From positions 14,215-78,214 of IMG/VR virus record IMGVR_UViG_2929656146_000003: a stretch of DNA of 64,000 nucleotides; one strand, given 5' to 3'. Below, one piece after another: positions 15,295-36,465 of this stretch. The notes below the pieces were generated by a model that searched no databases, was not told the origin of the DNA, and was given only the letters and a program-made list of their open reading frames with translations. Positions within the stretch are counted from its first letter, which is position 1. Every line of letters begins with the position of its first letter. The position numbers were made by a program, and so were the translations under genes. Source of the stretch: a virus. Taxonomy: Duplodnaviria > Caudoviricetes.

Positions 15295-15297
15295 GGG

Positions 15298-15753: not shown

Positions 15754-15754
15754 C

Positions 15755-16280: not shown

Positions 16281-16451
16281 TCAGCGCTTGCGGACGCCCT
16301 TGCGCGCGGGCAGGCGGCGGTACCGGGTGACGGCGCCGCCGGGCGTGGCGTGGGCTTTCTGGTGTGCGTAGCGGCGGAGCCGGGGGCTGGCGAAGAAGAG
16401 CCGCCACTGGGCGTTGCTCTTGAAGCCGGTGCGGCCTGCGCGTTTTGCCAC
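16281..16451 (-). CDS. Small basic protein (56 aa)
   Basis: Not in ORF track. GAGGAGG RBS + GTG; MAKRAGRTGFKSNAQWRLFFASPRLRRYAHQKAHATPGGAVTRYRRLPARKGVRKR. Confidence 0.7.
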   Translation of the reverse strand: MAKRAGRTGFKSNAQWRLFFASPRLRRYAHQKAHATPGGAVTRYRRLPARKGVRKR

Positions 16452-16460
16452 GGTTCCTCC

Positions 16461-19361: not shown

Positions 19362-19395
19362 CAGCCACCCCCTCCCTCTCCGTTAGTGGTGGCGG

Positions 19396-19842: not shown

Positions 19843-19875
19843 TGGTCAACTCTCCTTTTCGATATAATCGATGCC

Positions 19876-20667: not shown

Positions 20668-20769
20668 GTCGGGCATGGCCCCTCCTCGGCAGGTAGTACG
20701 GTGCCGGGTGGAGGGACCCGGGTGGCTTGGTCTATCGGAGCACAACCGGGTTCGGGTCCTGGAAACGCC

Positions 20770-20798
20770 GAAGCCCCGCCCGGTGAAGGGGGGGCTTC
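20770..20798. terminator. Hairpin, probable terminator
   Basis: GAAGCCCC...GGGGCTTC inverted repeat between convergent HNH and DUF6221-like genes. Confidence 0.55.
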
Positions 20799-20813
20799 AT
20801 GGACTGGGCGCGG

Positions 20814-21107
20814 TCAGGCGTCGGGCGCCCACTCGGGCTGGTAGTTGGGGTGGTCGCGGTACGGCATGGCGAGGATAGCCAGTGTCTGGTTCGCGAGCCA
20901 GTGACCGTGGTCCTCGTAGGCGAGGACGTGGTTGCAGGTTGCGATGATGCGCCGCTTGGCGTCGACCTCGGCCAGCACCCGTAGGTGGTGACCTGGGGCG
21001 CCCGGTTCGTTGTACTCGGAGTACCCGTTGTCCCCCCACGGGCCCTGTGCGAACTGCTCGTCCTCGTCGAGGCGGGCGTTCATGAACGCCACGAGGTCAG
21101 CACTCAC
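20814..21107 (-). CDS. DUF6221-like protein
   Basis: 'DLVAFMNARLDEDE...RVLAEVDAKRRII...LAMPYRDHPNYQPEWAP'. Confidence 0.8.
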   Translation of the reverse strand: MSADLVAFMNARLDEDEQFAQGPWGDNGYSEYNEPGAPGHHLRVLAEVDAKRRIIATCNHVLAYEDHGHWLANQTLAILAMPYRDHPNYQPEWAPDA

Positions 21108-21944
21108 AGCCCCAGCTCCCCATACGGGTAGTCGTACGGGCGAAGCGCCTCGGTGAGCGCCTCGTGCAGAGTGGGCTGTGGCAGGGTAGCGCTGATCTCG
21201 GGGTTGAGTTCCTTGACGATGGCTTCGCCGAGGGACCTCAGCAGGTCGGCCTTCATCCACTCCTGGTACTGCTGGTCCTGATGCCACAGCTCAACGCTGG
21301 CGAAGGTCTGTGCCTGAAGCCGCTTGCCGTTGACCTCGACGACGGTCCTGAGGGCCACCATGTCGGGCGGGGTCGTACTTCCGTCAGTCATCGGGGGAAC
21401 ACGTCCGGCAGCACTGGAGCGAACTGCAGGCTGGCCTGCCGGAGTGGCTCCATGGCGGCGGCCAGGTCACGCAGGGCCTTCGCGGCGACGAGTTGCAGCG
21501 GCGTGGGATTGGGTGCGGGGTGGTGGTGTCGGCCGAGTTGGCGGAGGGTCCGGTCGGTGCTGGGGTACGGGCGGTGGCTCATGCGGTCACCGTCGCTACT
21601 CCATGGCAAGGTCCACACATGGGCACGTCTACCCGGCCTGTTATCTCCGAGTACCTCGGCACCGTCAGGCCCGGTACCGCCTGTCCGGTGCAGGTCACGT
21701 TGGGCTGATCGCGGTGGAGGTCGCACAGGCAGTGGCATCCGCCGATTCCGGAGAGTGCCTCGTTCTCACGCCGGAGGCGGTCGAGTTCCTCGGGGTGCTG
21801 TTCGAAGTACTCGATGGTGGGGCGGAGGGTTTCGTACGCCTGGGCGATAGTTCCGACCGCGTGATTGAGAACGGGGCGGAGCGCCTGGCTTACGGCGTTG
21901 ATCGCGGCTCGGAGTTCCTGAGGGAAGGGCTGCTCACTGCTCAT
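21104..21944 (-). CDS. Three coupled hypothetical genes (21104-21391, 21388-21582, 21579-21944)
   Basis: Chained ATGA/GTGA overlaps. Confidence 0.6.
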
Positions 21945-22003
21945 GGGTTCATCCTCTCGTGGGAGGCCCGCCCGTGGTGAGAACTGGGCGAGCCCCTCTT
22001 CTA

Positions 22004-23974
22004 TCACTCCTCGGCACCGGGCAGGTAGAACTGCTCGGCCTTGCCGGCCTTGCGTGACTGCACACCGTGGGTCTTCCACAGGTCGAGGGCCCGGCGGACG
22101 GTGTCCCGGCTACCGAACGGCCCCTCTTCGACCAGGCGTTCCTTCGTGGCGTAGCCCTCCTCCTCGCATAGCTGAAGGAAGACCCGGTACAGGTCGATCC
22201 ACTCGTCTCGACCGACCATGGTGCCGTCCGGGTAGACGGGCGGCGGCGGACCAACCGGCCGGGCCGGGGCGGGCTTGAACAGGGACGCCTGAACTCCGCC
22301 CCCGACGGGCCGGGTCTGCGCCGGGGCGGCGGCGTGCAGGTGCGCCACATCTGCGGCGATGTCCAGGTCCGTCACATACTCGGCCCGGCACTTCGGCGGA
22401 TCCGTCAACGGCATCTCCGGGCAGCCGATGTAGAACTCGCCTGGTCGGGTGAGCTTCTCCGGCGTGAAGCCGTTGCTCTTGCAGCCCTGCCCGAAGATGA
22501 ACACGCTGTGCCCGGCCTCGCCGACCCTGGTCGAGATGCGGTTCGCGTAGTTACCGCGGGCGTCGCTGGACCCGCCGAACACCTTCGCGGACGGCTGCTG
22601 CGTCGCGGACAGGAACATGATCCCCATCGAGCGGGCGATCGCCAGGGCGGACTCGTATGTCGTCGCGATGTCCTGCTCGGGCGGGCCCATCTCCGGGTCC
22701 AGCTTGCGGAGCTCCGCCTCCTGCTTGCGGAGTTCCTCGTCCTGCCGGATCAGCTCGGCGAGTTCGTCGGTCACGACGATCCATGCCGGGCCGTGGACGC
22801 CGGGGATCCACTTGCGGACGGGCTCGCGGCCGGCAGCCATCTCCCTCTTCGACAGCTCCTCCAGGTAGGCGCCACGGCGGTCGCACTCCGCGCGGATGTA
22901 CTGCAGGAGCTCGCGGGCCTCCTCGGCGGTTCGGGCGAGCCTGCGCATCTTCGGCTCCCACGGGCCGAGTTCCACGGCGCCAGGCTTCATATCGATGCCG
23001 AACAGCTCGACGTGCTTCTTCTTCAGCAGCTTCTTGATGATCAGGTTGATGATGCCGGACTTGCCCCAGTCCGATGCGCCGGCGACGAGGGTGTGCCGGT
23101 ACATGACGGTCAGCAGGACGGGCTGCCCGTACTCGGTCCAGCCGAGCCGGATCGGCTTGGTGATGTCGTCGGAGTCGTCGTCGGCGTACGGGATGACGCG
23201 GTCGTGGAACGGGCCGCCCGGGCCCCGGGGCGTCGACTGCTCTTCGGTGCTGCTGGACGCGGAGGCCTTCAGGGCGGCCTGGCCCCCCTGGTGCAGCTGG
23301 ACGTCGACGGAGGCGTTGGCCTTCGCCGTGGCGCTGGCTTTCCCCGGCAGCGCCTTGTGGTCCTTGCGGTGCTGGATCAGCCACGGCACGTACACCGCGT
23401 ACGCGGCGCCGGTGGTGACCGCTGCGGCGGTGAGGGAGACACCGCCAGGGCCGGTGCCGACAGCGGTGGCGACGTCGGCGAAGGTGAGCGTCAGGCCGGC
23501 TCCGGCCCGTGTCAGCATCTCGTCCTTCTTCTCTACCCCGGCGGCGGTGACCGCTGCACCCAGGACGGCAAGGCCGGCGTACGCGGCGGTTCCCCAGCCT
23601 CCGACACCGGCGAGGTACTGCCACCAGCCGAGACCGGTGACGGCGCCGACGGTCATGGCGGGGGCGAGCTCGACGCGGTACCGGATGACGAGGGCGCTGG
23701 CCTGGTTGGCGACGGCCACGCAGGCGGCGAGGAACCGCCTGGGCAGGGCTGGCCGGGTCTTCTGGACGACGTAGACGGAGCCCTCGACCACCGCCGTCGC
23801 GGGTGACGACGAGGCCCCAGTGGACTCGTCGTTTCCTGTTTCCGCAGGTCGCGGCTCTGCGATGGTCGTCGTCATCGGCATCGTCGGCGTGATCGTCGCG
23901 TTGTCCTGCCGCTGGGGTCGGGGGAGGAAGGGGAGGATCTGAGCCCCGTCGGCCGGGGGCAGGTACTGGGCCAC
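22004..23974 (-). CDS. traB: TraB-like FtsK/SpoIIIE conjugative DNA translocase
   Basis: N-terminal TM helices, Walker A 'AGASDWGKS', 'IDMKPGAVEL', Walker B 'VVTDELAEL', 'ARSMGI...ATQQP', short C-terminal wHTH-like domain; GAGGAG RBS before GTG. Confidence 0.85.
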   Translation of the reverse strand: MAQYLPPADGAQILPFLPRPQRQDNATITPTMPMTTTIAEPRPAETGNDESTGASSSPATAVVEGSVYVVQKTRPALPRRFLAACVAVANQASALVIRYRVELAPAMTVGAVTGLGWWQYLAGVGGWGTAAYAGLAVLGAAVTAAGVEKKDEMLTRAGAGLTLTFADVATAVGTGPGGVSLTAAAVTTGAAYAVYVPWLIQHRKDHKALPGKASATAKANASVDVQLHQGGQAALKASASSSTEEQSTPRGPGGPFHDRVIPYADDDSDDITKPIRLGWTEYGQPVLLTVMYRHTLVAGASDWGKSGIINLIIKKLLKKKHVELFGIDMKPGAVELGPWEPKMRRLARTAEEARELLQYIRAECDRRGAYLEELSKREMAAGREPVRKWIPGVHGPAWIVVTDELAELIRQDEELRKQEAELRKLDPEMGPPEQDIATTYESALAIARSMGIMFLSATQQPSAKVFGGSSDARGNYANRISTRVGEAGHSVFIFGQGCKSNGFTPEKLTRPGEFYIGCPEMPLTDPPKCRAEYVTDLDIAADVAHLHAAAPAQTRPVGGGVQASLFKPAPARPVGPPPPVYPDGTMVGRDEWIDLYRVFLQLCEEEGYATKERLVEEGPFGSRDTVRRALDLWKTHGVQSRKAGKAEQFYLPGAEE

Positions 23975-24067
23975 GAGGGGCTCCTCTCGGTACTGGGATG
24001 GGGTGGTCTGAGTGCTCGCGGCGGCCGCCCAACCGCAGGGGTTGGGCGTCACCGGCAGGCCGTCAGA

Positions 24068-25435
24068 TCAGCCGTCCGTCCCGGTGATCGGCCGGACGTT
24101 GTCGGACCCGAGCGCGGCAAGCTCGGGGTGCTCTCGCTCGATCTCCAGCCGGCGAGCGTTCGCGAACTGGCGGGACTTGGGGAGCTTCGCGGCCTTCAGG
24201 GCGGCCACCATCTCGGACTCCAGGGGGCGCCTTCCAAGGTCGGCGTAGAGCGCCTTGATGGCGTCTCGTGCGGCGTCCCGTGGCGCCGCCGTGGGGCGCC
24301 CTGAAGTGGTGGGCCGGGGCGCCTTCGTGGCGCTACGAGGGCGGGCGACGGGGCGCTTCTGGGGCGCTTCAGAAGCGGCATTGGTGGCGCTCTGACGGGC
24401 GCTGTCATAGCGCTCTCGGGGCGCCATAGCGTCGACTGCCGTGGCGCTCTGAGGGCGCTTCACAAGGTCGACGGTGGCGTCATGCGTGGCGCTCCCGTGG
24501 CGCCCCGAAGCCGCTGCCTGAGGCGCTTCCGTGGCGGGTGCGAGGGCGCTTTCGATGGCGCCCCGAATCACTGGTTGGGGCGCCACGATGCCGGACGCCA
24601 TGGCGCTTTCGGGGCGCTCTACGTAGATAGGCGGGAGCGCTTCCGTGGCGCCTTCATGGCAGTCGACGGTGGCGTCCTGAGGCGCCTCGATGGCGGCCTG
24701 TCCGTAGGCCTCGTGCAGCGCTGCGCCGATCGGCTTGCCAAGCTTGGCGAGCCTGATGGCGAGCTGCTCGGGCTTGGTGGCCTGCCTCTTCCATCCGCGT
24801 CCGTAGCGGATCCTGAGCGTGGTGCGGAAGACCTTCGACTCCTGTTCCATCAGGATCACTTCGGTGTAGGAGCGGATGTTCCACATGCGCATGCGGCGCC
24901 ACACGCGGTAGGTCGGCCACGGGGCGAGGAACCAGCGGGGCAGCGGCGGGTTCTCGTAGTAGGCGCCGCTGCTGATCTTCGCCATCCGGCCCACGGCGTG
25001 CCTGCCAGCCTCGACGATGAGGACGAACAGGATGGGCATGGTGGCGTGCATGCCTACGGCGATTTCGTCACCCCAGGAAGCGGCGACGTTGAAGGCGATC
25101 GTGGCGCCGGTGAGACCCCAGGCCGCGTAGCGCAGTAGGGGGAACGGCATGCGGAAGAAGGTGAGGAGGAGGTCAAGGGCAAGGAGGGTACCGATGCCGA
25201 CGTCGACGCCGAGGGGGAAGACGCGGGCGAAGTCGCCGAAGTCCTTCTTGATGGCGAGCCTGACAACGGCGTTGTAGGAGCCTGCGAAGCCGATGCCAGC
25301 GATGGAGATGGCGCCGGCAACGATGGCGCCGATGGTGGCTTTCTGCGGCTTGGTGAGCTCGCGCTTGGTGCGGGCGTCGAGGCCCAGCGCGGGAGTGGTG
25401 GTGAGCTCAGTCTCGGTGTTTGCGATCGGGTTCAC
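24068..25435 (-). CDS. DUF2637 membrane protein (Spd-like spread protein)
   Basis: Four TM segments 'GFAGSYNAV...FPLGVDVGI...TIAFNVAA...MHATMPILF..VEAGRH', low-complexity linker, C-terminal HTH-like end. Confidence 0.8.
   Translation of the reverse strand: MNPIANTETELTTTPALGLDARTKRELTKPQKATIGAIVAGAISIAGIGFAGSYNAVVRLAIKKDFGDFARVFPLGVDVGIGTLLALDLLLTFFRMPFPLLRYAAWGLTGATIAFNVAASWGDEIAVGMHATMPILFVLIVEAGRHAVGRMAKISSGAYYENPPLPRWFLAPWPTYRVWRRMRMWNIRSYTEVILMEQESKVFRTTLRIRYGRGWKRQATKPEQLAIRLAKLGKPIGAALHEAYGQAAIEAPQDATVDCHEGATEALPPIYVERPESAMASGIVAPQPVIRGAIESALAPATEAPQAAASGRHGSATHDATVDLVKRPQSATAVDAMAPRERYDSARQSATNAASEAPQKRPVARPRSATKAPRPTTSGRPTAAPRDAARDAIKALYADLGRRPLESEMVAALKAAKLPKSRQFANARRLEIEREHPELAALGSDNVRPITGTDG
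24224..24690 (+). repeat. Dense oriented array of GGCGCY motifs (candidate clt/TraB recognition locus)
   Basis: About 22 GGCGC(C/T) copies counted by eye in about 460 bp, often 10-12 bp apart, falling in more than one reading frame of the DUF2637 ORF. Confidence 0.6.
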
Positions 25436-25454
25436 GTCTGGGCTCCTTCCTGGG

Positions 25455-25790
25455 TTAGCGAGTGGTCGGTGAGTGGTTGGGGGCGATGTGGTGGGCGCTG
25501 GTGGTGAGTACCCACAGTGCTGCGGTGGCGAGCGCGCGGAGTGTGGCGGCGAGGGTAAGGAGGCTGCCGGCCGCGATCGCGCGGAGGGTGTGGTGGTGGC
25601 CGGCGATGAGCTGCGGAAGGTCGAGGCGCAGGGCGGTGCCCGCGAGGGCGAGCACCGCGTACTGGGCGAGGATCGCGGTGGTGACTGCGGCGAGGGCGGG
25701 GGCGGGGAGCAGGGTGGCGGCGAGCACCGCGAGCGCTAGGGCGGTGGTGGTGAGGGCCTGCTGCTCGGCCGGGGCGGCGGTGCGGGCCAC
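25455..25790 (-). CDS. Hydrophobic membrane protein (Spd-like)
   Basis: 111 aa Ala/Leu-rich; GAGAGGAG RBS; in transfer operon. Confidence 0.6.
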   Translation of the reverse strand: MARTAAPAEQQALTTTALALAVLAATLLPAPALAAVTTAILAQYAVLALAGTALRLDLPQLIAGHHHTLRAIAAGSLLTLAATLRALATAALWVLTTSAHHIAPNHSPTTR

Positions 25791-25836
25791 GACGGTCTCC
25801 TCTCTGGGTTAGGCGGGTGGGTCCGGGGCTCGGCTC

Positions 25837-26067
25837 CTACTTCGGGGTGACGACGAGGTCGAGCACGTTCCCGGGCACCTTCAGCAGGGTGGCGAGGTCG
25901 GCAGCGAGCGAGCCCAGGGTGTGCGGGATGTCGACCCTGGTGACGATCTGCTTCTGGTTGATGCCGGTGCCTGCGCTGTCGCGCAGCTCGGTGATGAGGG
26001 TGACGGCGTAGTTGCCCGGCGGAACCTGGGTACCGGCTCCGTTGCGGCTGATCGACATGGTGGTCAT
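25837..26067 (-). CDS. Hypothetical protein
   Basis: 76 aa; GAAAGGA RBS. Confidence 0.6.
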   Translation of the reverse strand: MTTMSISRNGAGTQVPPGNYAVTLITELRDSAGTGINQKQIVTRVDIPHTLGSLAADLATLLKVPGNVLDLVVTPK

Positions 26068-26082
26068 GGCGTGGTCGTCCTT

Positions 26083-26616
26083 TCAGGTGGTGGCTGCGGT
26101 GCGCAGCAGGTTGTGGATGTCGGCCTTCGTGCGGCCGGGCTCGTCGTTCCAGGTGTCGACCGGGATCGGGTGGCCGGCGCGGCCGAGGGCGTTGCCGATG
26201 AGGAGGCGGGCTTGCCAGGCGGTGGCGGGGGTGCCGTATCCGTGGGCGAGGACCTGGAGGTGGGCGCCGAGGACGCACACGGCGCCGGTGGCGTCCCAGA
26301 GGCCGCCCTGGGTCCAGCCGTGCTGGGTGATGTAGCGGTCCATCAGCTGCAGGTGCTCTCTCGCGGTGACTTGGATGGTGGGAGCCGGGCGACGGAGGAT
26401 CCGGTCGGTGAGGGTGCGGGCGGGTTGGGGGTGGCCGGCCCACCAGGGCGGGGTGGTGCTGCCGTGGGCCGGGATGTGCACCGTTGGGGCGGTGCGCAGC
26501 GGGGTGGGTCCGCCGGTGGGGATGACGGTTTTGAGGTAGGCCTCGATCTCGGCGACCAGGAGGGGGCCGTACAGGTCCACGTCCAGGTCGAGCGGGGTGG
26601 TGATGGTGGCGGGCAT
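26083..26616 (-). CDS. DUF6197-like protein
   Basis: 'HGWTQG...GAVCVLGA...WNDEPGRT..DI..LL' motif. Confidence 0.65.
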   Translation of the reverse strand: MPATITTPLDLDVDLYGPLLVAEIEAYLKTVIPTGGPTPLRTAPTVHIPAHGSTTPPWWAGHPQPARTLTDRILRRPAPTIQVTAREHLQLMDRYITQHGWTQGGLWDATGAVCVLGAHLQVLAHGYGTPATAWQARLLIGNALGRAGHPIPVDTWNDEPGRTKADIHNLLRTAATT

Positions 26617-26704
26617 CTTGGGGGTTCTCCTCTCCTGGTCAGCGAGCGTGCGATGGGTGCGGTCCGTGCGAGTGATGCGATACCGTGCACGGCCCGCCGG
26701 GAGG

Positions 26705-26920
26705 TCAGGCCCGGTGCCGGCCGCATCGCGACAGTGCGGCCGAGCCGTAGCCGACGCCGGAGGTGACGACGCACAGGCAGGCATCGCAGACGGCTCCGGG
26801 GATGGGCAGGCTCTCGGTGGCGTGCGCGACCCGCATCGGCTGGCCGCAGCAGGTGAGGTTGTCGTAGGCCTCGGGGGTGAGTGATGCGCCGTCGGCGAGC
26901 TGCGTGAGTGGGGTGGCTAT
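26705..26920 (-). pseudogene. Cys-rich small ORF beginning with ATA (mutated or non-canonical start)
   Basis: GGAGG RBS, in-frame TGA, GCC, then ATA opening 71 codons with 'CCGQPM...CDAC'. Confidence 0.5.
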
Positions 26921-26923
26921 GGC

Positions 26924-29900
26924 TCAGTCCTCCAGGTCGGTGGGGTACTCGCCGAGGCGGGCGGTCTCGGCGAGCGAGCGGTGTTCTTGTGCCTGTGCGA
27001 GGCACTCGGTCCGGCCGGGGCCGTCGGCCTGGGCGGCGAGAAGCTTCAGGGCCGCGGCTTCCCTCAGGTGGTGGGCCACTGCGGCGGCGCGTTTCATGTC
27101 GATGTCCCCCTGCTCCGGTGCGGTGTGTGTGAGGGTGCGGGCCTTGGCGTGGGCTAGAGCGCGGCGCGCAGGTCTGCGAGGGCCTGGTCGGCGGCCCGCT
27201 GGCTGGGGGTCAGGATGCTGCGCGCGGCGCCGTGGATCGTGGCGGGCAGCAGGGCGCGGATGTCGCGCTCGTTGACGCCGGCTGCGATCGCGGCCTTGTA
27301 GGCCTCGCAGGCGTCGGCGACGGACTGGCTGTAGGTGGCGTCGGCCGCGGCGTCGGCCCGGTAGGCGGACTCGCTGCGGGCGACAGCGTCGACAACGGTT
27401 CGGATGAGGTGCTGCTGGCTGGCCATGGTTCCTCCTGGGAGTGAGGCGGCGGGCTGGGCGCGGGGCTCTCCTGGTCGGCGTTCAGGCCGCGCGGAGCAGC
27501 TCGCGGGTGGCCGGGTACATGTCGAGCTGCGCGGCCAGGTAGCGCTGGGCGACGTCGTCCTGGATGCCGGCGCTGGCGGCTGCGACGCGGTCGTGGAGGT
27601 CGGAGCTGAACCGGGCGGAGAGCTCCTCGTCGTGGCGGTGCTGGTCGGCGCCGGTCCACTGCGGGGTGTCGGTGAGCGGGCCGTGAGCGGACCAGATCTG
27701 CCAGGACGGGGTCTGGCCGGCCATCAGCTGGCCCGTGTAGACGCCCCACTTGGCTTTGCGGTCGAACTGGTAGTCGCCGTGGACGAGGCCCCCGCTTCCG
27801 GAGCTTCCGATCGGGGCGATTGTGTAGTAGGTGACGCCGAGCTTGGCGACGGTGTTGACCCACTGGTCGTGTTCGCGGCGGGCCTCGGCGGCGTAGCGCT
27901 GGCTGCGGGCACTGTCGATGGCGCGGTTGAGGAGCCTCATACTGAGGTTGCCCTTCTTGCTCGTTGGCGGGTGGTGGGGTGTCCGGGGCGGCCGGCTGTG
28001 CTTGGCGGCTGATGGCGGCCGCCCCGGGGGCGGGGCTAGGAAACGTGCTCGGAGGCGTCGGACTTGGCTTGGGCGACTGCGGCATACCAGTTGGCCTGGT
28101 CGTTGAACAGACGCTTGCCGGGATCGCTGGCGTTGTTCCAAGTGCAGGTGCAGAACGCCTCGATGGTGTTGCCGTCGGGGCAGGCTGTCTCGGTGACCAC
28201 CGCGGTGTGCTGACCGTTGCGGAACGCGGCGATGTCACCGCGGCCTGGGTAGATTTCGTGGGGAAGCACTGCTTTGGCCTCCTTGCGGCCAGGTCTGGGC
28301 TGGGTTGCGTGGTCAGGACCAGTGCCAGACCGAGCGGGTGCGGGCCGCCTCTGCGGCGGCTGCGCCGAGTTCGTAGCAGGCCTGCTGCCATGTCGGTGAG
28401 GCGAACGGGGTGAGGGCCTTGAACGCGGCGCCCATGCGCGCGGCCTGGTCGGGCTGGATGTCGAAGGTGTCTCCGCTGCCCCGGTTGAACAGTGGGCTGA
28501 TGGCGGCCCAGTCGCTTCGTGGGGCGATCTGCTTCAGGTACTCGCCGAGTTCGGTGTGCGCACTGTAGGAGCGGGTCCCGCCGGTCTGGTTGTGGTCCCA
28601 GGACCAGCCCATCAGTTCTTCCGAAGCTGTTCGGGCCGGTAGGTGCGCTCTCCGAGTACCGCCTCGACGAGTCGGTTGTCGATGCCCTTCACAGAGACCA
28701 GCTGGCCGACGTCATCGGTCTGGACCTGGACGACGGTGCCGGTGCGGCCGAGGGTCTTGGGGTTCTGCCCGTCGGTGTTGATCACGGTGACGCTGTCACC
28801 CTCACGAACGGCCATCAGGCGGCAGCCCGGTAGACGTCGACGTAGCCAGCGGGCAGGTGGAGCTCCTGCGCGGCGAACGCGAGGACCTCCGCGTCGGTGA
28901 CCGCACCGTACGTGTGGACGGGCTTGAAGACCGGGCCGGCGAACTCGGGGTGCCGGACGATCAGGCGGGCGGGCTCGCCCAGGATCCGGTCGGTGAAGTT
29001 CTTCATGATGTCCCTTCAGAATCAGACGTAGAGGGCGTAGGCGATGCCGCTGAGGATGAGGATCACGAGGATCACTACGGGGATGAGAGCAGCCAGGCGG
29101 TGGGCCTCCTCCCTTGCGCTGTCCTGAGGGGTGATGAGGTATCGGAGGTAGCTGCCATCGCCGTCCATCAGGTTGCCTTTCACGCGGCGGCCGGGTAGCG
29201 GATGGTGTCCGCGCCGAGCCGGTAGAGGAGGGTCGTGGCCAGAGCCTCGGCCTCGTGCTCGGCAGCGTCGATGACGGCGTCGCGTTCGGCGGGGGTGGCG
29301 TCGGGGCGCAGTCGGCCGAGGGCGATCTGCATGCTGGCGATGCCGTCGCGCTGCTCCTGCAAGGTGGCCATCAGACGGTTCCTTTCAGAGTCGGGCGGCG
29401 GCCTCACGGACCGCCTGGACGGTGTCGTACGGGGAGTCCTCCAGCGCGAAGACCTCCGCGCTGGGCAGTGCGGCGAGCATGCGGGCCGCGTGGGTGACGC
29501 ATCCGTTCGCGTTGATGTACGGGTTCCACTGGACGACATGGGCCACGACCGGGCCGTCACACGGGGGTTGTGCCTGCTTGCTGTGGTTCGCGGCGGACTG
29601 GGCGGCGTCGCAGTAGGCGCTCACTCGGTGTCCTCGTCGAACGGTTCGGTGAGGATGTCGATGTACGGGGTTCCGTCTGCGGCGGTCATGAGCGACAGGA
29701 GCTCGATCAGGCCGGCGCTGTTGGGGTCGTCGATGTCGACGGGGACCGGGTCACCGTTGCCGGCCATCAGACGATGTCCAGCGGGGTGCGGACCTGGGTG
29801 GCTTCGAGGTCGGTGATCTCCTGGACCTCCGCCCGGAACTGCTGGGCCAGGGTCTCGCGCAGGCCCTTGTCCTTGGCGGCGAGGAACTGCCTTGCCGTGG

Positions 29901-30265
29901 TCCGGGCCTTCGTTTCGAGGGCGGCGATCTGCTCGTCGAGGGTCACTGCTTGTCCTCCTTCTTGATCGGGTCGATGGGCTTCCGCGGCCGCGGGATCCTG
30001 GGGATGACCGGCCGGTTGTCCCAGTCGGTCACTTCGTGGGCTGCGGGGGGAGGGGCGGGAGGGGCTGGTGGCCGTAGCCGCCGTTCGTGGAGTGGTCGCC
30101 GGCGCCGTCGGCGAAGGCACGGTCGTAGTGCATGGGGTCCTCCTTGCTGGGGGTGATGGTCCGCTGGCCGATCGGGGGAGCCCCGAACGCCGGCGAGGGG
30201 CGGGACGGCTGCGGGCCGGGTTCAATGGGGTCGAGGCCGGGCCAGCCGTTGTGCGGGTCAGGCAT
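26924..30265 (-). CDS. Chain of small hypothetical genes (26924-27097, 27154-27426, 27482-27940, 28036-28269, 28313-28612, 28612-28815, 28815-29006, 29022-29168, 29180-29371, 29385-29624, 29621-29767, 29767-29946, 29943-30032, 30029-30265)
   Basis: Tightly packed; each has an RBS or a start/stop overlap; one operon upstream of the transfer genes. Confidence 0.6.
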
Positions 30266-30492
30266 CAGGCGGCGTCCGCCAGGTCGTGCATCGCCTGGAT
30301 CTTGGCCGCGACGACCGCGCGGGGGATGCGGATGGCACCGCCGCGACCGGCCTGGCCGCGGGACCACTGCTTGCCGTGGCGGATCGCTTCGAGCTCTCCG
30401 TCCTGCACCCAGCGGTAGATGGTGGGGATGCTGACCCGGAGCGCTTTCGCGACCTCCTTGACGGTCAGGACCGGTGGACTCTCGGGCAGCAT
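30265..30492 (-). CDS. Excisionase-like (HTH_17) DNA-binding protein
   Basis: 'LTVKEVAKALRVSIPTIYRWVQDGELEAIR...IRIP'; first gene of the leftward operon. Confidence 0.85.
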   Translation of the reverse strand: MLPESPPVLTVKEVAKALRVSIPTIYRWVQDGELEAIRHGKQWSRGQAGRGGAIRIPRAVVAAKIQAMHDLADAA

Positions 30493-30538
30493 GCTGAAGC
30501 CCTCCTTCCGAGGGGTTCCTCGTTGGCTGATGGACACA

Positions 30539-30577
30539 ACTATATAGGTTCTCTTGAGAAGCTGCAATGTTCTCAGG
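30539..30577 (-). promoter_or_regulatory. Leftward promoter/operator
   Basis: Minus strand TTGCAG-N17-TATAGT; spacer contains palindrome TTCTC-NN-GAGAA. Confidence 0.75.
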
Positions 30578-30664
30578 CTGTGTTCGAGCTACCAGGGCCG
30601 CAACCTTGTGCCTTAACTTGAAAGGCGACAAGGTTTCCCGCTCTGTGCCAAAAGGAGGCGACTG

Positions 30665-31207
30665 ATGGCTGACGAAGGCCAGCTGGACGCGTCGGCTGCC
30701 TACCTCCGAGCACCCACCAGCGGACACCGCGATGCATGGAGCGAGCTCGCACGCGCATCTGGGCGGCAGGGTGGTCAACGGCTGATTGAAGTGGGTGAAG
30801 TCGAGGCGCCAGAAGGCGTCGCCTGCGCGCTCCGTTTGCCCGTAGGGGCGCTCGTCTCGATCCGGCGCAGGGTGATCACGCTTGATGGCCGTGCAGTGGA
30901 AGTCGCAAGTTCCTACTACCCGGCCGACATAGCGGCGGGCACTCCGCTGGCGAGACCCGCACGCATTCGAGGCGGGGCTGTGGCGGTGTTGGCAGCCCTC
31001 GGGCACCAACCAGTGGTTGCTCACGAGGAAGTGGCGGCCAGGCCAGTGTCAGCAGCTGAGCTGGAGATCCTTGACGCGAACCCGTCTGACTGGGTCCTCG
31101 ATCTCCTGCGAATTGCTCTGGATGTGACTGGGCGCCCTGTCGAGGTCTCTCTGATGACCATGCTGGCCGTTGGCCGGAAGCTCCACTACACCGTCGAGAT
31201 CGGCTGA
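30665..31207 (+). CDS. Stand-alone UTRA-domain protein (no HTH)
   Basis: 'RRRVITLDGRAVEVASSYYP.DIA.GT.L..P.RIRGG...EEVAAR' parallels the UTRA domain of the next gene; AGGAGG RBS; no N-terminal wHTH. Confidence 0.8.
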   Translation: MADEGQLDASAAYLRAPTSGHRDAWSELARASGRQGGQRLIEVGEVEAPEGVACALRLPVGALVSIRRRVITLDGRAVEVASSYYPADIAAGTPLARPARIRGGAVAVLAALGHQPVVAHEEVAARPVSAAELEILDANPSDWVLDLLRIALDVTGRPVEVSLMTMLAVGRKLHYTVEIG

Positions 31208-31211
31208 GATC

Positions 31212-32015
31212 ATGAAAGAACACGACATCAGTACCACCAGTGAGGCACCGGACAAGCCGACTCTTGAGCAGGAAAAGGGCGCCTGGCCGCAACACGAACT
31301 CCTGGCGAGCTACCTGCGCGACGGCATCCTGTCCGGCGACTTCCCTGCCGGCAGCCTGCTGCCGTCGACGAGGCTCCTGCGAGAGAAGTTCGGGGTTGCA
31401 CCCCAGACCATCAAGCACGCAAATGACCAACTGGCCAGCGAGGGCCTTGTCCGCAGCCACCGAGGCAAGGGCATCATCGTGCTTGATCGCCGCCCACAGA
31501 CCGTGGTGCCTGCGGCGACCAAAAGGCCGGCAAACCCGGGTGACCCGTATCGCTGGATCACCGAAGCATCGAAGAGTGGGCTGCAGGGAGCGAGTGTCCT
31601 TCTCGACGTAGACGAGGTCGTTCCGCCCAAAGACGTTGCGCGGGCGCTCGGACTTGGGGCGAGTGGCGTGGCCCTTCGGCGCGAGCAAGTCCTCACGCTC
31701 GACGGCGAGCCGGCCGAATACGTGAGGGCGTACTACCCTGTGGATATCGCGCGAGGCACTGAGATCGCCGTTCGCAAGCGGATCAGGGGCGGGACGCCGC
31801 GGGTCCTTCAGGACCTTGGGTATCCGCCGCTCAGGTGTGTGGACACTGTTTCGGCGCGTGTTCCGACGCCGGACGAGGTCAAGGCCCTGGGTACGCCCAC
31901 CAAGGTTCCAGTCCTCAGGACACTGCGCGTGGTTCACAGCGTTGACGACAGAGTGGTGGAGGTCGCTGTGATGGCGAAGGCAGGCCACCTCTACGAGCTG
32001 CAGTACGACTTCTAG
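31212..32015 (+). CDS. GntR/HutC-family repressor with UTRA domain (KorSA/TraR-like)
   Basis: 'LRDGILSGDFPAGSLLPS...FGVAPQTI..A...LASEGLV....GKG' GntR HTH plus UTRA. Confidence 0.9.
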   Translation: MKEHDISTTSEAPDKPTLEQEKGAWPQHELLASYLRDGILSGDFPAGSLLPSTRLLREKFGVAPQTIKHANDQLASEGLVRSHRGKGIIVLDRRPQTVVPAATKRPANPGDPYRWITEASKSGLQGASVLLDVDEVVPPKDVARALGLGASGVALRREQVLTLDGEPAEYVRAYYPVDIARGTEIAVRKRIRGGTPRVLQDLGYPPLRCVDTVSARVPTPDEVKALGTPTKVPVLRTLRVVHSVDDRVVEVAVMAKAGHLYELQYDF

Positions 32016-32038
32016 CCCCTGCGTCGGGAGCGATCAAG

Positions 32039-32072
32039 CTACGGCCCTGCCTTAGTCATGGCGGGGCCGTAG
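32039..32072. terminator. Bidirectional terminator hairpin
   Basis: CTACGGCCCTGCC...GGCGGGGCCGTAG between convergent GntR and PemK genes. Confidence 0.7.
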
Positions 32073-32078
32073 TAGTTG

Positions 32079-32465
32079 CTAGCCGAGTTCTCCGAGGAGC
32101 CCGAATGAGCGGGCCAGGACTGTGTTCAGCTCGGCCATCTGGGGAGGGCGCAGGCGACCAGCGAAGCGTTCGAGGCGGGACTGGTCGATGGTCATCACCT
32201 GAAATCCCAGGATGTCACCGGCATCGGGGAGGGGGTCACCAGCCTGAAGGGTCACCGTGATGGGGGAGGTTTCGCGAACCCTGGTTGTCATCGCCGCGAC
32301 GGTCACCGTAGGCATACGGCTATTGAACGAGTCCAGCGAGATCACGACGGCGGGCCGATGGCCGGCCTGCTCTGAACCGCGTGCTGGGTCGAAGTCCACC
32401 CAGTAGATGTCTCCCCGCTGAGGGGACGGCGGCCGCCTGAGAGGCGGAGGGCTCGGTACGGGCAC
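32079..32465 (-). CDS. PemK/MazF-family endoribonuclease toxin
   Basis: 'RGDIYWVDFDPARGSEQAGHRPAVVIS...QVMTIDQSRL'. Confidence 0.92.
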   Translation of the reverse strand: MPVPSPPPLRRPPSPQRGDIYWVDFDPARGSEQAGHRPAVVISLDSFNSRMPTVTVAAMTTRVRETSPITVTLQAGDPLPDAGDILGFQVMTIDQSRLERFAGRLRPPQMAELNTVLARSFGLLGELG

Positions 32466-32474
32466 TCGGACAGC

Positions 32475-32729
32475 TTAGTACTCGGGCCACTCCGCCGAAC
32501 CCGCATCCCATGCGGCCGCAGCCCACTCTGCCGACTCGTCGGCGAATACTGCGAACGCATCTCCCAAGCCATCATCGGGGGACGGCGTGGCGGTGGCGAG
32601 TTCCACCTGTGGAGAGCTTTGCAGGGAGAGGGACAGCCAGGGGAAGCACTCCGCGAGGCTTGCTGACGGTGCGCCGACAAGTGGGTAAACCACCTGGGCG
32701 GAGTTGCTCTGAGAAGGTGCGGTGCTCAT
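32475..32729 (-). CDS. Putative antitoxin (acidic C-terminus)
   Basis: 84 aa directly upstream of the toxin; ends 'FADESAEWAAAAWDAGSAEWPEY'. Confidence 0.55.
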   Translation of the reverse strand: MSTAPSQSNSAQVVYPLVGAPSASLAECFPWLSLSLQSSPQVELATATPSPDDGLGDAFAVFADESAEWAAAAWDAGSAEWPEY

Positions 32730-33076
32730 GGCTGTTCCCCCTGTGCCTCGTCGTAGATCTCGGCCGCCGACTCCAGGATCTTGATGAGCTCCTGGATACG
32801 GTCTCGTGTCAGGACGAATCTGCCAAGAGGTTTCACGGGCAGCTTATGCCCGGATTCGGCCAACCGCTCGACGATCTCTTCGTCCGAGCCGAACAGTAGG
32901 GGTGGCTCAAGGATCCCCATGGTCAGGTAGATGGAGTCTGGCCGGCCTGACGCGTTTGGAACGCCGAGCGCAACGGCGAACTGGTTGGTCGGTTGAGCAG
33001 GGCCGGCGGGGTCTTCCCACACCAGTCGGAACTTCGCGGTGTGTGCCGTGGTGCTCGTGATGGGGGGCTTGGTCAC
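32726..33076 (-). CDS. Hypothetical protein, first gene of toxin operon (DUF3467-like pattern)
   Basis: 116 aa 'TNQFAV...IYLTMG..EPP...GRFVLT...QELIKIL'; ATGA-coupled to next gene. Confidence 0.6.
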   Translation of the reverse strand: MTKPPITSTTAHTAKFRLVWEDPAGPAQPTNQFAVALGVPNASGRPDSIYLTMGILEPPLLFGSDEEIVERLAESGHKLPVKPLGRFVLTRDRIQELIKILESAAEIYDEAQGEQP

Positions 33077-33206
33077 ACGGACAGTCTGCCACCGTCAACT
33101 GATCAGCATGCAGGCGCCAGCCAGGTTCCGCTGCGACTGGCCACCCTAAGGGGGGAACTGCCACGTATTGGCTGCGCCTGCGATTGCAGTTCAGGGCGCG
33201 CGCAGT

Positions 33207-33245
33207 CCCGAGAACATTGAAACTTCTCAATAGAACCTATAAGGT
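33207..33245 (+). promoter_or_regulatory. Rightward promoter/operator
   Basis: TTGAAA-N17-TAAGGT; 33207-33241 is a 31/35 inverted copy of 30543-30577. Confidence 0.75.
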
Positions 33246-33268
33246 TTGATGTGCTGCACAACGTAAGA

Positions 33269-33293
33269 CGGCCCCGCAGTAGGTGCGGGGCCG
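33269..33293 (+). other. Leader hairpin
   Basis: CGGCCCCGCA-GTAGG-TGCGGGGCCG, perfect 10-bp stem just downstream of the promoter. Confidence 0.6.
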
Positions 33294-33356
33294 CGACTTC
33301 ACCGCGCGTGCAAGTGGCCTGGTAACCGGAACACGCGCAGATCGGAGATCTCCATC

Positions 33357-33998
33357 ATGGCATTCGCCGTCAAGAGCGTCGACGTCACCCCGGCGGTGAC
33401 CCGATGATCGCCGTCACCGTCGCCCGCCCCACCGAGAACACCGCCGTCGGCCTCATGCCGGTCCGTGAGCTCGGCAACCTCGGCGCCTACCACCTCGCCC
33501 GGTTCGCCCTCAAGACCGGGGACATGTACGGCGCCCGCCTGTTCACCAAGAGCTACCTGCGCGCCCTGGCCGGCGGCAAGGTGGGGGAGTCGCTGTGATC
33601 ACCATGACCGCCCCGCGGATCACCGCCGGCCTCGTCCCCGTCGAGTTCGGCAACCCCGGGCCCGCGATGCACCCCGTGCAGATCGACGCCGTCACCCTGA
33701 TCGTCGGCTACGACCCGCGGGTCCTCGACGCCGACCTCGTTACCACGATCCTGCAGTCCGTGCACGGCGCCGACCTCGTCATCGTCGAGGAGGTGCCTGA
33801 GTGAAGCTCCTCCAGTCCCTCCACAAGGACCAGCCTGGCGCGGCCGCCCAGATCGCCGCGACCGCGGACGACGCCCGCACGCTCGGCTTCGAGAACGTCG
33901 CGACGCACTACGAGCCCCAGACAGGCCACCACACCGTCACGGGTGACCTGCCCGCGGCGACGGCGCAGCGCACCGTCGACCGGATCCTCGGCCGCTGA
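33357..33998 (+). CDS. Four coupled small ORFs (33357-33407, 33404-33598, 33595-33804, 33801-33998)
   Basis: RBS and chained ATGA/GTGA overlaps. Confidence 0.6.
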
Positions 33999-34111
33999 GG
34001 CCTGCTTGGGCCGCCCCGTGATGGGGCGGCCCCTCGTTCACCCTCACCTTCGTGTCCAGCTGGAGAAGCCGTGTTCCTGCGTACCCCTGCCGCCGTACTG
34101 GCGGTGCGCTG

Positions 34112-35089
34112 ATGGGGATCAAGCTGGTCGAAGAGGTCATGGACTGGTGTCCGGATGATGTGACGCCAGCGCAGCGCTGGTGTTTGACGGTGTTGGCGCG
34201 GGATGCGAACGACGCGACCCGGGAGACCTTTCACGGCCCGGAGCATCCCGAGATCCTGCGCCGGGTGCGGTTGTCGGCGAAGCGGTGGGAGGCGGTGCGG
34301 TCGTCGTTGTTGAAGCGGGGGTTGATCGAGCCGGTGTCAGGTGGGTATCGGGGGCGTGCGGGGCGGTATCGGATCGCGTGCTTGTTCGCTCCGTGTGTGA
34401 TTGGGGACGGTCGAAAGACCCCTGGTTTTCGGGGGGCTTTCGGTGGCTACCAGCCGGTAAGGGGGCAGAAAGACCCTCAGGTTCCGGGGGTCAATCACTC
34501 TGAAAGCCCCCCGGAACCTGAGGGTCTTTCGTCGGAAAGCCCCCTGGAACCCGAGGGGCAATCGGCCGAAAGACCCCCGGAAACCAGGGGTCCTACTCCT
34601 CCTTCTTTCTCCTCCCAACCACCCTCCTCCCGACCCGCGCCTCCCGAGCCGCCCACCGGACCCGAGCCGGACGACGGACGGGAGGGCGGGGGGACCGCCT
34701 CACGGCGGCAGGACAACCCCGCCTACGCCGCCCTCGCCCGCATCGCAGCCCGCCACCACCAACTCGCCCTCGGCGAAAACGAGATCGCCACCCTCGCCCC
34801 ACTCGTCGCCCCCTGGCTCCAGCGGACCACCGAGGCCCGCATGGAGCACGCGATCACCACGGGCATGCCCGCTACCGTCACCAACCCTGTCGGGTTCCTG
34901 CGCCGCCGGCTCGTCGAGAAGCTCCCTCCGCCGCTCGCCGCCGTCCCCGACGAAGAACGCTGCGGTCGCCCGAACTGCGACCCGATCACCCACATGGTCA
35001 CCCTCCCCGGAGGCGACCAAGCGCACTGCGCCACCTGCCACCCCACCGGGCGCGCCCTCGCCCGCCGAGCCCAAGGAACCGCCGCATGA
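34112..35089 (+). CDS. Replication initiator (HTH Rep), island copy
   Basis: N-terminal wHTH-like 'LTVLARDAND...LLKRGLIE....GRAGRYRI', internal DNA repeats, C-terminal 'NPVGFL..RL' and Zn motif; ATGA-coupled to DnaB. Confidence 0.75.
   Translation: MGIKLVEEVMDWCPDDVTPAQRWCLTVLARDANDATRETFHGPEHPEILRRVRLSAKRWEAVRSSLLKRGLIEPVSGGYRGRAGRYRIACLFAPCVIGDGRKTPGFRGAFGGYQPVRGQKDPQVPGVNHSESPPEPEGLSSESPLEPEGQSAERPPETRGPTPPSFSSQPPSSRPAPPEPPTGPEPDDGREGGGTASRRQDNPAYAALARIAARHHQLALGENEIATLAPLVAPWLQRTTEARMEHAITTGMPATVTNPVGFLRRRLVEKLPPPLAAVPDEERCGRPNCDPITHMVTLPGGDQAHCATCHPTGRALARRAQGTAA
34413..34593. repeat. Five iteron-like quasi-palindromes (candidate origin)
   Basis: GAAAG(A/C)CCC..GG....(G/A)GGG units start at 34413, 34468, 34502, 34535, 34568; first two inverted relative to last three. 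Confidence 0.75.
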
Positions 35090-36465
35090 CCGACCACGAC
35101 GACGACCAGGCCCTCGGCCCCGTCCCGCCGCAGGACCTCCACGCCGAACGCGCCGTCCTCGGCGCCATGCACCTCGCCTCCACCGCGGTTGCCGATGCCG
35201 TCGGCACCGGCCTGCGCGGCAGCGAGTTCTACCGCCCCGCCCACGAAAAGATCTACGACGCGATCGTCGCCCTGTACGCCGCCGGCGACCCTGCCGACCC
35301 GATCACCGTGTCCCGGCAGCTGGCCGTCACCGGCGACCTGGACAGGTGCGGTGGGCCCGGCTACCTGCACACGCTCGTCAAGGCTGCTCCGGCGGCGGCG
35401 AACGCCGAGTACTACGCGGCGATCGTCCGCGAGAAGGCCCGACTGCGTACTCTCGCGGTGGCGTTGAACCGCGGCTCGCTGATGATCGCCCAGGCCGAGG
35501 GCGATCCGGCCGAGGTTGTCGAGGCGATCCAGGCGGAGATCATTGCCGCAGCCGGGAACCCGGACGGGCCGGGCGCGTCCTCGGTCGGCCTGGCCGTCGT
35601 GCGCGACACCCTGGGAGCTGCTCTCGATGCGATCGAGGCCGTCAACGAGGGCTCTACGCCGATCGGCGTCCCGTGGGGCTTCAGGGACCTGGACGCGCTG
35701 ACCGGTGGCATGCACCCCGGCCAGATGATCGTCATTGCAGGGCGGCCGGGCATGGGCAAGTCCACCGGAGGTATGGACATCGCCCGGTCCGCCGCGATCG
35801 GGCACGGCCTCGGCACGGCGTTCTTCTCGCTGGAGATGTCCCGTGTCGAGATCATGAAGCGGTTGATCTGCGCCGAGGGATGCGTCCCCCTGCACCACAT
35901 GCAGGTCAAGGCTGGCATGACGGATGACGACTGGACGCGGGTTGCGAAGGTCATGCCGCGGATCTCGGACGCTCCGCTGTACCTCGACGACTCGCCGGAC
36001 CTGACGATGACGTCGATCCGGACGAAGGCCCGCCAGATCGCCGCTGAGACCGAGTTGAGGCTCATCGTGATCGACTACATGCAGCTGCTGCGGTCCGGGG
36101 GCGGGCACCGCTACGAGTCCCGGCAGCAGGAGGTCTCGGACCTGTCGAGGTCGATCAAGTTGCTGGCGAAGGAGTTGGAGATCCCGGTGATCGCCCTGTC
36201 GCAGCTGAACCGCGGCCCGGAGCAGCGCACCGACAAAAAGCCGATGGCGGCTGACCTGCGGGAGTCCGGGGCGATCGAGCAGGACGCCGACTTGATCATC
36301 CTGTTGCACCGTGAGGACGCCTACGACAAGGAGTCGGCGCGGGCGGGGGAGGCGGACTGGATCGTGGCGAAGAACCGGTCGGGGCCGACGTCGACGATCA
36401 CGGTCGCCTTTCAGGGGCACTATGCCCGTTTCGTCGACATGGCTGCGGATCTTCGGGCAGCCTGA
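35086..36465 (+). CDS. dnaB: Replicative DNA helicase
   Basis: 'PPQDLHAERAVLGA', 'AGRPGMGKST', 'FSLEMS', 'IDYMQL', 'LSQLNR', 'DLRESGAIEQDAD', 'KNRSGP'. Confidence 0.97.
   Translation: MTDHDDDQALGPVPPQDLHAERAVLGAMHLASTAVADAVGTGLRGSEFYRPAHEKIYDAIVALYAAGDPADPITVSRQLAVTGDLDRCGGPGYLHTLVKAAPAAANAEYYAAIVREKARLRTLAVALNRGSLMIAQAEGDPAEVVEAIQAEIIAAAGNPDGPGASSVGLAVVRDTLGAALDAIEAVNEGSTPIGVPWGFRDLDALTGGMHPGQMIVIAGRPGMGKSTGGMDIARSAAIGHGLGTAFFSLEMSRVEIMKRLICAEGCVPLHHMQVKAGMTDDDWTRVAKVMPRISDAPLYLDDSPDLTMTSIRTKARQIAAETELRLIVIDYMQLLRSGGGHRYESRQQEVSDLSRSIKLLAKELEIPVIALSQLNRGPEQRTDKKPMAADLRESGAIEQDADLIILLHREDAYDKESARAGEADWIVAKNRSGPTSTITVAFQGHYARFVDMAADLRAA

Follow-up and report, generated by a model that had tools for sequence, protein, structure and literature searches.

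The window, that is, the whole stretch of DNA analysed here, comprises 64,000 nucleotides of the tailed-phage record IMGVR_UViG_2929656146_000003 from IMG/VR, and the analysis was centred on the block at positions 22004-36465. Genes were called by third-position GC content and then scanned against the families of Pfam, PHROGs and NCBIfam. An original prediction, made from the letters of the sequence, had described the block as a TraB-type conjugation island with a second replicon and no integrase. All of the components that it named are present, between the early and the packaging genes of a tailed phage, and the anatomy of the block fits the TraB/Spd/GntR transfer kit. The block appears to form the central control, transfer and replication region of a temperate tailed phage of 84.07 kb, present as a prophage in a mycelial actinomycete. 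Its features are as follows:

22004-24052, minus strand: TraB-like FtsK/SpoIIIE translocase, hereafter the pump (Pfam FtsK_SpoIIIE, 29 bits)
24068-25435, minus strand: SpdB2-like membrane protein (DUF2637) of 455 amino acids (aa) (Pfam, 99 bits; phrog_29003, E 4e-80)
24226-24685: phased array of 22 copies of [GT]GGCGC[CT] (GCGCC on the coding strand), within the 3' half of the DUF2637 gene
25455-25790, minus strand: small hydrophobic protein of 111 aa with four hydrophobic segments, Spd-like by position only
26083-26784, minus strand: DUF6197 protein (Pfam, 75.7 bits; phrog_762)
28313-28612, minus strand: DUF7739 protein (Pfam, 77 bits)
30265-30567, minus strand: excisionase-type helix-turn-helix (HTH) protein (HTH_17; Pfam, 50 bits; NCBIfam TIGR01764), first gene of the leftward operon
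30538-30577: left copy of the twin operator/promoter element, a 40-nt inverted repeat, 85% complementary
30665-31207, plus strand: UTRA-only protein of 180 aa without HTH (Pfam UTRA, 71.8 bits)
31170-32015, plus strand: GntR/HutC-type regulator with HTH and UTRA domains (Pfam GntR, 50 bits; UTRA, 65 bits)
32079-32465, minus strand: PemK/MazF toxin (Pfam PemK, 94.9 bits)
32475-32729 and 32726-33076, minus strand: two small open reading frames (ORFs) upstream of the toxin gene, as PemK partners
33207-33246: right copy of the twin operator/promoter element, the 40-nt inverted-repeat partner
34112-35089 (ORF from 34052), plus strand: putative replication initiator ("Rep") of an orphan family, translationally coupled to dnaB
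34408-34602: iteron-like palindromic units of ~33 bp in the linker-coding DNA of the initiator gene, a candidate origin
35086-36465, plus strand: DnaB-type replicative helicase (Pfam DnaB_C, 315 bits; DnaB N-terminal domain, 95 bits)

The pump ORF spans 682 aa, and the database form of the protein has 656 aa with a start at 23974. The protein matches phrog_1358 (E 1e-21), and its sequence matches in the Protein Data Bank were FtsK and the pCW3 coupling protein TcpA. As in TraB proteins, it contains an FtsK/SpoIIIE-type motor with intact Walker A and B motifs: Walker A reads GASDWGKS, and Walker A, Walker B (GKS, DE) and the TQQPS motif were invariant across 15 homologues. In the AlphaFold model, which has a mean pLDDT of 61, the motor domain matched FtsK (6t8g) with an E-value of 2.5e-9 in Foldseek. 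The N-terminal part is predicted to fold into five helices at residues 77-205, with hydrophobic stretches, and residues 593-650 at the C-terminus into a winged helix (pLDDT 83-90). The pump is thus predicted to have the TraB architecture of a membrane N-terminus, an FtsK motor and a C-terminal winged helix, the two terminal parts by prediction only. The NCBIfam scan returned nothing further for either the pump or the DUF2637 protein.

The source genome amounts to 9.1 Mb in 56 contigs, and the window corresponds to the minus strand of a 729-kb contig, C4. The closest homologues of the window proteins bear the name Kitasatospora. The prophage occupies C4:313882-397946 (84,065 bp; window-equivalent positions -17286 to 66778), limits that could be set because the empty site of genome G368 was aligned to both junctions and fixes the crossover. 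In G368 and in two further genomes, G334 and G408, the empty site joins C4:~397947 to C4:~313881 with an overlap of ~9 bp, and the decarboxylase flank runs straight into DNA that lies 84 kb distant in the genome studied here. According to the G368 alignment, the crossover falls in this ~9-bp overlap, inside the 3' end of a gene for a pyridoxal-phosphate-dependent decarboxylase, which together with its neighbours is conserved in 107 of the 134 other genomes of the genus, with matches ending a few bases from the integrase side. At the right end of the element, past the window, lie:

65197-66726 (window-equivalent), minus strand: serine integrase of 509 aa with Resolvase and Recombinase domains
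~66779 (window-equivalent): attR, from junction mapping against the empty site

The integrase gene begins ~1.2 kb past the end of the window and is the sole match to PF07508 in the genome. None of the 13 genome matches to the tyrosine integrase family PF00589 was on contig C4, and no tRNA genes were found where looked for. With Resolvase and Recombinase domains at one end, attB in a protein-coding gene, a short core and virion genes, the element has the attributes of a temperate phage with a large serine integrase and phiC31-like integration. The whole insert is therefore one element, bounded by attL and attR and equipped with its own serine integrase. Misassembly of the contig was considered and rejected as unlikely, given that the contig measures 729 kb, that both junctions match the empty site in relatives and that the gene order recurs elsewhere. 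The statement in the original prediction that the block lacks an integrase was borne out, the serine recombinase being at the end of the element; the island and second replicon that it coupled to this statement were replaced by a native transfer-type module within an 84-kb serine-integrase prophage.

For the pump protein, the databases contain 164 homologues. Matches were found in at least 18 of the 401 genomes of the family, and full-length copies in at least seven of the same genus, among them the genome studied here. From six other genomes (G140, G318, G320, G374, G129 and G358), the surroundings of the pump gene were fetched over about 60 kb, and all products of the element were compared with them. 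In five of the six the pump gene lies upstream of phage late genes, and the G318 contig ends 4.7 kb past the gene. In G140 and G320 it is found 4-5 kb upstream of a large terminase subunit (TerL) of the same type as here (91% and 52% identical, respectively). G374, G129 and G358 do not have this TerL type; there, different head genes come after the pump, together with tail genes that share 24-49% identity with those of the element, and the G129 TerL belongs to phrog_2. DnaB is encoded in all six loci (30-55% identity); part of the six have the small genes, part the HTH_17 gene and part the GntR gene, in the same order. A profile built from 15 pump homologues further retrieved 36 IMG/VR viral contigs that encode pump relatives, most of them with a multi-pass membrane ORF upstream of the pump, and four of the five diverse contigs sampled carried a phrog_2 TerL. 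One complete IMG/VR record, of 91,887 bp with direct terminal repeats and a circular appearance, has a relative of the pump that shares 57% identity with it across the motor; neither a phrog_2 TerL nor a DUF2637 match was found in this record, which may represent a plasmid or a plasmid-phage like pZL12.

The recurrence of a TraB-like gene beside phage structural and packaging genes is the linkage that the original prediction had suggested looking for. Because this linkage recurs, the pump block is a native, conserved module of the phage rather than a foreign island. As the prediction also anticipated, there are no att repeats that belong to the block itself: no exact direct repeats longer than 16 bp flank it. 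Its description as an island had to be abandoned, given that it is a conserved module of a single 84-kb element that extends from attL to attR and has its own serine integrase.

The DUF2637 protein has three hydrophobic segments. Over its first ~220-240 residues it is 52-53% identical to gp24 of phage VWB (184 and 223 aligned residues), itself a DUF2637 protein (126 bits), and homologues are carried by 348 plasmid records. It combines the domain and several transmembrane helices with a gene position beside the translocase, both here and in G129, G358 and G320, that is, directly upstream of the pump in all three relatives covered by the Pfam test, from which the upstream ORFs of G140, G318 and G374 were left aside. 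SpdB2 homologues are described as present on all conjugative Streptomyces plasmids, and the Discussion of the same article mentions them in the actinophages phiC31 and VWB (Thoma et al. 2015, PMC4447253). We infer that gp24 is the VWB homologue meant there, in which case Pfam DUF2637 would correspond to SpdB2. The adjacent 111-aa hydrophobic protein matches no Pfam family, and homologues 60-63% identical to it occupy the same place in G140, G374 and G129.

The repeat array at 24226-24685 is the strongest k-mer cluster of the whole 84-kb element. Its copies occupy all three reading frames, and all pairwise spacings between them are multiples of ~11.35 bp. Synonymous resamples contained 6.5 ± 2.1 copies, as against the 22 observed, a number reached in none of 2000 resamples. 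When the motif was taken in its 8-mer form, 15 of the 34 element-wide copies lay inside the array, with an orientation of 15:3; outside it, the 8-mer had no strand skew of the kind shown by FtsK-orienting polar sequences (19 versus 20 copies). The array is a signal at the level of DNA and is under selection at that level. In all six relatives, a k-mer cluster ranked first or second at the locus falls in the same gene. The motifs are GCGCC in G318, TGATGCGC/GCGCATCA in G140, G320 and G358, GTGAGCGC in G374 and CCGAAGC in G129. According to passages of PMC3583192, the cis-acting loci of transfer (clt) of Streptomyces plasmids consist of repeats of 7-9 bp arrayed within tra or adjacent to it, and they vary from plasmid to plasmid. 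Arrays in this gene with lineage-specific motifs would fit such loci, and by this analogy we regard the array as a candidate, clt-like docking site.

In the control region, the twin repeats at 30538-30577 and 33207-33246 enclose the UTRA, GntR and PemK genes, and each copy is upstream of an outward operon. Their 17-mer core occurs twice in the window, whereas none of 100 shuffles gave two or more copies. The GntR/HutC-type protein, for which NCBIfam returned sub-threshold GntR-family matches only, is a candidate TraR/KorA-like repressor and may act on these repeats. The UTRA-only protein, encoded immediately upstream of it, may modulate the repressor. We envisage the repressor, its HTH-less UTRA paralogue and the PemK module as lying between two outward promoters that would share one operator. 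The two small ORFs before the PemK gene match no recognisable antitoxin or other Pfam family. GC content dips to 0.64-0.66 around 31-33 kb, and the PemK cluster between the twin operators is the lowest-GC part of the element. A consensus scan of positions 15000-34000 yielded no promoter-like and five terminator-like sequences, compared with 0.8 and 6.2, respectively, in shuffles. The true start of the HTH_17 gene is likely the ATG at 30493, behind a GGAGG. A role of its product as excision factor of the integrase was considered and is possible, yet the integrase is of the serine type and 35 kb away, so the protein was treated as an early regulator or left unassigned. The leftward operon would run from this gene through ~15 small genes, the small membrane protein and the DUF2637 channel protein to the TraB-like pump, in the direction of the packaging genes and possibly as a single transcript.

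The rightward operon would couple the initiator, with its internal iterons, to DnaB. Rep has no match in Pfam, including RepSA, RepAM, Prim-Pol and every other Rep family there, or in PHROGs, NCBIfam and the sequences of the Protein Data Bank, and a tblastn search against 72,556 plasmids found nothing. Its family counts 20 homologues, all annotated as hypothetical. In the model of the protein, a winged helix at the N-terminus is joined by a disordered linker to a helical domain at the C-terminus, and the fold matches of Rep in Foldseek were weak and generic (winged-helix, MarR- or RepA_N-like; E ~0.1). Four cysteines are invariant in the family alignment, and an ERPP..GG peptide repeat that matches the iteron units is conserved. 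The relatives retain DnaB and exchange the initiator. Neither of the two partition families searched, ParB_N (PF02195) and ParA AAA_31 (PF13614), had a match on contig C4. In lambda (O) and P22 (gp18-gp12), the origin lies inside the initiator gene, which is coupled to a gene for a DnaB helicase or a helicase recruiter beside the control region. The arrangement here is similar in having iterons in the linker-coding stretch of the initiator, a coupled helicase and a location next to the control region; it differs in that Rep has neither sequence similarity nor confident fold similarity to known initiators and has a C-terminal Cys4 motif of its own. Given this layout, the retention of DnaB with exchanged initiators and the lack of ParA/ParB matches, Rep and DnaB look like the phage's own replication module, of the lambda O/P22 type, and not clearly like a plasmid replicon. 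The second replicon of the original prediction is accordingly doubtful.

Around the block, the window contains the late and early genes of the phage:

1-19842, minus strand: late genes (Pfam and PHROGs)
2105-5926, minus strand: tape measure protein of 1273 aa (Pfam/PHROGs)
9260-10168, minus strand: capsid (Pfam)
10299-11102, minus strand: scaffold (Pfam)
12093-13670, minus strand: portal (Pfam)
13735-15294, minus strand: TerL, ~50% identical to Streptomyces phages such as Yara
43821-64000, minus strand: early arm (Pfam and PHROGs), with the following seven genes
47120-48076, minus strand: C5 methylase
54674-55642, minus strand: phage Zn-finger protein
55339-56400, minus strand: "replication initiation protein" phrog_8064 (PHROGs)
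57525-58004, minus strand: single-stranded DNA-binding protein (SSB)
60057-60803, minus strand: exonuclease, RNase T-type
61148-61996, minus strand: RecT
61993-63225, minus strand: YqaJ

An Endo VII gene is also among the early genes to the right of the block. In a megablast search of 50,697 phage records, the block matched Pseudomonas phages alone, over 144 bp of DnaB. Between the transfer module and the terminase, positions 16461-19361 encode a 966-aa protein (phrog_14065, E 4.5e-99), with DUF1349 as a sub-threshold match only, and plus-strand ORFs at 19876-20667 break the series of minus-strand genes that leads from this module to the packaging region. A 470-aa multi-pass membrane protein with DUF2079 (42020-43432, plus strand), 64% identical in the G320 prophage, may be the product of a moron gene. 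Within the left 15 kb of the prophage, genes for two types of glycosyltransferase, for an NAD-dependent epimerase and for a methyltransferase cluster at window-equivalent positions -8652 to -3528, beyond the tail genes and on the opposite strand. Such glycosyltransferase cargo is linked to the related prophage of G320 too, on a contig other than the one that holds the G320 copy of the decarboxylase flank, and the cluster is read as phage cargo, which may serve to glycosylate the virion or the cell wall. Also in the left arm is a stretch of ~530 bp (C4:389725-390252) of which many genomes of the genus have copies 75-85% identical, with one further copy in this genome (C3:515178-515699); it may be a conserved gene or a repeat.

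The closest precedent for the arrangement is phage ZL12/pZL12 (GQ919031.1; circular, 90,435 bp), whose conjugal transfer is reported to require tra together with two neighbouring genes in passages citing Zhong et al. 2010 (PMC3583192, PMC4487206). Both are tailed-phage genomes of similar size that combine, on one replicon, structural genes, an FtsK/SpoIIIE tra operon and a divergent GntR gene. In pZL12, the GntR gene diverges from a minus-strand operon of a membrane protein, a large ORF (pZL12.72c) and the FtsK/SpoIIIE-like tra gene, the last immediately upstream of the terminase, portal, capsid and tail genes. Early genes are shared as well (SSB, 62% identical; RuvC-like protein, 53%; C5 methylase, 39%). 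In contrast, pZL12 is a plasmid with ParA and ParB, whereas the element described here is integrated by a serine integrase at mapped junctions, with no PF02195 or PF13614 match on its contig. The ZL12 record contained no match to PF10935 (DUF2637) or PF01580 and no comparable k-mer array.

With the Streptomyces plasmids pSVH1, pIJ101, pJV1 and pWTY27 and the integrative and conjugative elements of actinomycetes (AICEs) pSAM2 and SLP1, the element shares an FtsK-type motor with a winged helix, an SpdB2-family protein, a GntR repressor beside the operon and a short-repeat array beside or inside the transfer genes. Unlike in these, the kit is embedded in an 84-kb phage with a full virion module. 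Moreover, 4-9 copies are quoted for plasmid clt arrays in PMC3583192, compared with 22 on a helical lattice here. AICEs unite Int, Rep (RepSA, RepAM or Prim-Pol) and Tra in one integrated element (Ghinet et al. 2011, PMC3218068); the present element has a serine Int and Tra, together with a Rep that has no match among the Pfam families, and it extends over 84 kb with its virion genes. In VWB, gp24 likewise lies between the early genes and the terminase, and homologues of its early genes gp10, gp12 and gp16 are present in the element, but no FtsK-like gene was detected in that phage by tblastn or with PF01580, and the neighbouring gp25 belongs to an unrelated PHROG. Our literature search retrieved no description of integrated prophages with both pump and DUF2637 genes plus an array, and passages of PMC10023795 and PMC7969092 contained no mention of FtsK, TraB or conjugation relevant to actinophages. 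The pZL12 layout with its reported tra-dependent transfer was already known, as were, since 2015, the SpdB2 homologues of phiC31 and VWB, and the pump-bearing prophage is a variant of the known pZL12-like dual elements rather than something categorically new.

Taken together, the best reading of the block is, in our judgement somewhat probably, a particle-free route for phage DNA by way of the TraB-like pump. With the switch open and the excised element in replication, the pump, a hexamer anchored in the membrane, would attach to the phased array of GCGCC copies; assisted by the SpdB2-like protein, it would then drive phage DNA in double-stranded form through septal cross-walls or into an adjacent hypha. 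The route would be particle-free, as in Streptomyces plasmids and as reported for pZL12. A further-reaching scenario, which we hold only tentatively and consider rather less probable, is that a temperate actinophage lineage represented by Kitasatospora/Streptomyces prophages and viral contigs consists of true dual-route elements. In these, the replicating circle, once excised by the serine integrase, would be loaded onto the pump via the phased array of at least 20 copies within the spdB2-like gene, read by some partner that is not the conserved winged helix, perhaps the variable DUF2637 C-terminus, and would spread capsid-free by conjugation or through the mycelium, with one GntR switch choosing between mating and lysis.

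Several observations weigh against the transfer reading. The Pfam FtsK_SpoIIIE score of the pump, 29 bits, is barely above the cut-off of 24. In tblastn searches (E 1e-5), the pump matched five of 72,556 plasmid records, all of ~130 kb, over the ATPase domain only, and none of them is a classical transfer plasmid; sequence relatedness to classical plasmid TraBs was not found by this plasmid-wide search, which stood in for pairwise comparison with named TraBs (pSVH1, pIJ101, pSG5). The surroundings of the pump homologue on a ~131-kb Streptomyces plasmid were almost all annotated as hypothetical. Among 50,697 phage records only Gilgamesh was matched, and the pump is not BLAST-similar to the pZL12 tra gene. 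The predicted recognition helix, S-R/L-D-T-V-R-R-A, is nearly invariant across seven pumps with differing array motifs, and winged-helix identity among these seven does not follow motif type. Since the recognition helix stays the same while the motifs change, the data do not support a simple model in which the winged helix reads the array, and a different reader may be at work, for instance the C-terminus of the DUF2637 protein. The G129 array lies mostly in one reading frame, where it encodes an AEAE-type peptide, and may thus be a repeat at the protein level. DUF2637 was found by Pfam in only one of the five sampled viral contigs, weakly, and our own profile, jackhmmer and phmmer searches, made with too narrow a panel, placed DUF2637-like ORFs in only 3-5 of the 36 viral loci. 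Lastly, contigs of the probable source sequencing run show the integrated form, one of them spanning attR at even depth with no alternative junction.

Part of this evidence, namely the remoteness of the pump from classical TraBs and its recognition helix that does not co-vary with the array motif, speaks for the main rival, which we consider unlikely. It assigns to the pump and its DUF2637 partner a function in the phage other than cell-to-cell transfer, be it interference with segregation of the host chromosome, with septation or with sporulation, the partitioning of phage or prophage DNA into spore compartments, superinfection exclusion at the membrane or help in DNA entry; the array would then be bound in the service of this function, or of segregation. 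FtsK/SpoIIIE-like genes of the Streptomyces phages Jaresh and AndoPrime are discussed in passages of PMC13587820 in relation to host development, not transfer; the category of the pump family in PHROGs is "moron, auxiliary metabolic gene and host takeover"; and a lattice phased at ~11.35 bp could, by comparison, also be a centromere-like or wrapping site. On the other hand, an FtsK motor with a winged helix, an SpdB2-family protein, a GntR regulator and an array make up the defining double-stranded DNA transfer kit of Streptomyces, according to sections of PMC4447253 and PMC3583192, and conjugal transfer has been reported for pZL12, where the layout is the same.

Two further explanations were considered for the block. 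That it derives from a plasmid or AICE as an island with an independent second replicon, the excised circle replicating from the island origin before being pumped by TraB, appears quite improbable. The element does have two initiator candidates, the orphan Rep with its iterons and the phrog_8064 protein at 55339-56400, the second of which keeps the two-replicon idea alive, with low probability; plasmids and AICEs typically carry GntR regulators and TraB/Spd genes; and the variation of initiators beside a constant DnaB amounts to module shuffling. Yet an origin within the initiator gene, with DnaB, beside the control region is the classical lambdoid layout, the related prophages have kept DnaB and the small genes that precede it, Rep found no counterpart in Pfam Rep families or on plasmids, and there are neither ParA/ParB matches on the contig nor att-like repeats around the block. 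Least credible, and in our view very improbable, is an independent AICE-like element or decaying remnant that was inserted into the prophage and contributes nothing to the phage. Its content would be that of an AICE minus the integrase (Xis-like HTH, GntR, Tra, Spd-like protein and Rep), and the GC dip around 31-33 kb would agree with an insertion. The lack of an integrase in the block and of flanking repeats argues against it, as do the recurrence of position and orientation in five of six diverged prophages with different head modules, the invariant catalytic motifs of the 15 pump homologues, the DNA-level selection on the array and the twin operators, which link the leftward and rightward arms.

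If the pump acts on the phage's own DNA, the boundary between viruses and conjugative elements would be blurred in mycelial bacteria. A virus of this kind could spread into adjoining compartments of the hypha, or reach new hosts by mating, without lysing cells, and models of prophage spread, host range and gene flow, including that of the 15-kb glycosyltransferase cargo, would change accordingly. The only experimental case that we found is pZL12, and an integrated lineage with a serine integrase would untie the trait from plasmid life. The most interesting detail is the phased array written into coding sequence: if the transfer reading is true, the element would provide a natural system for how an FtsK-type motor finds its DNA, with the array as an unusually clean candidate site.

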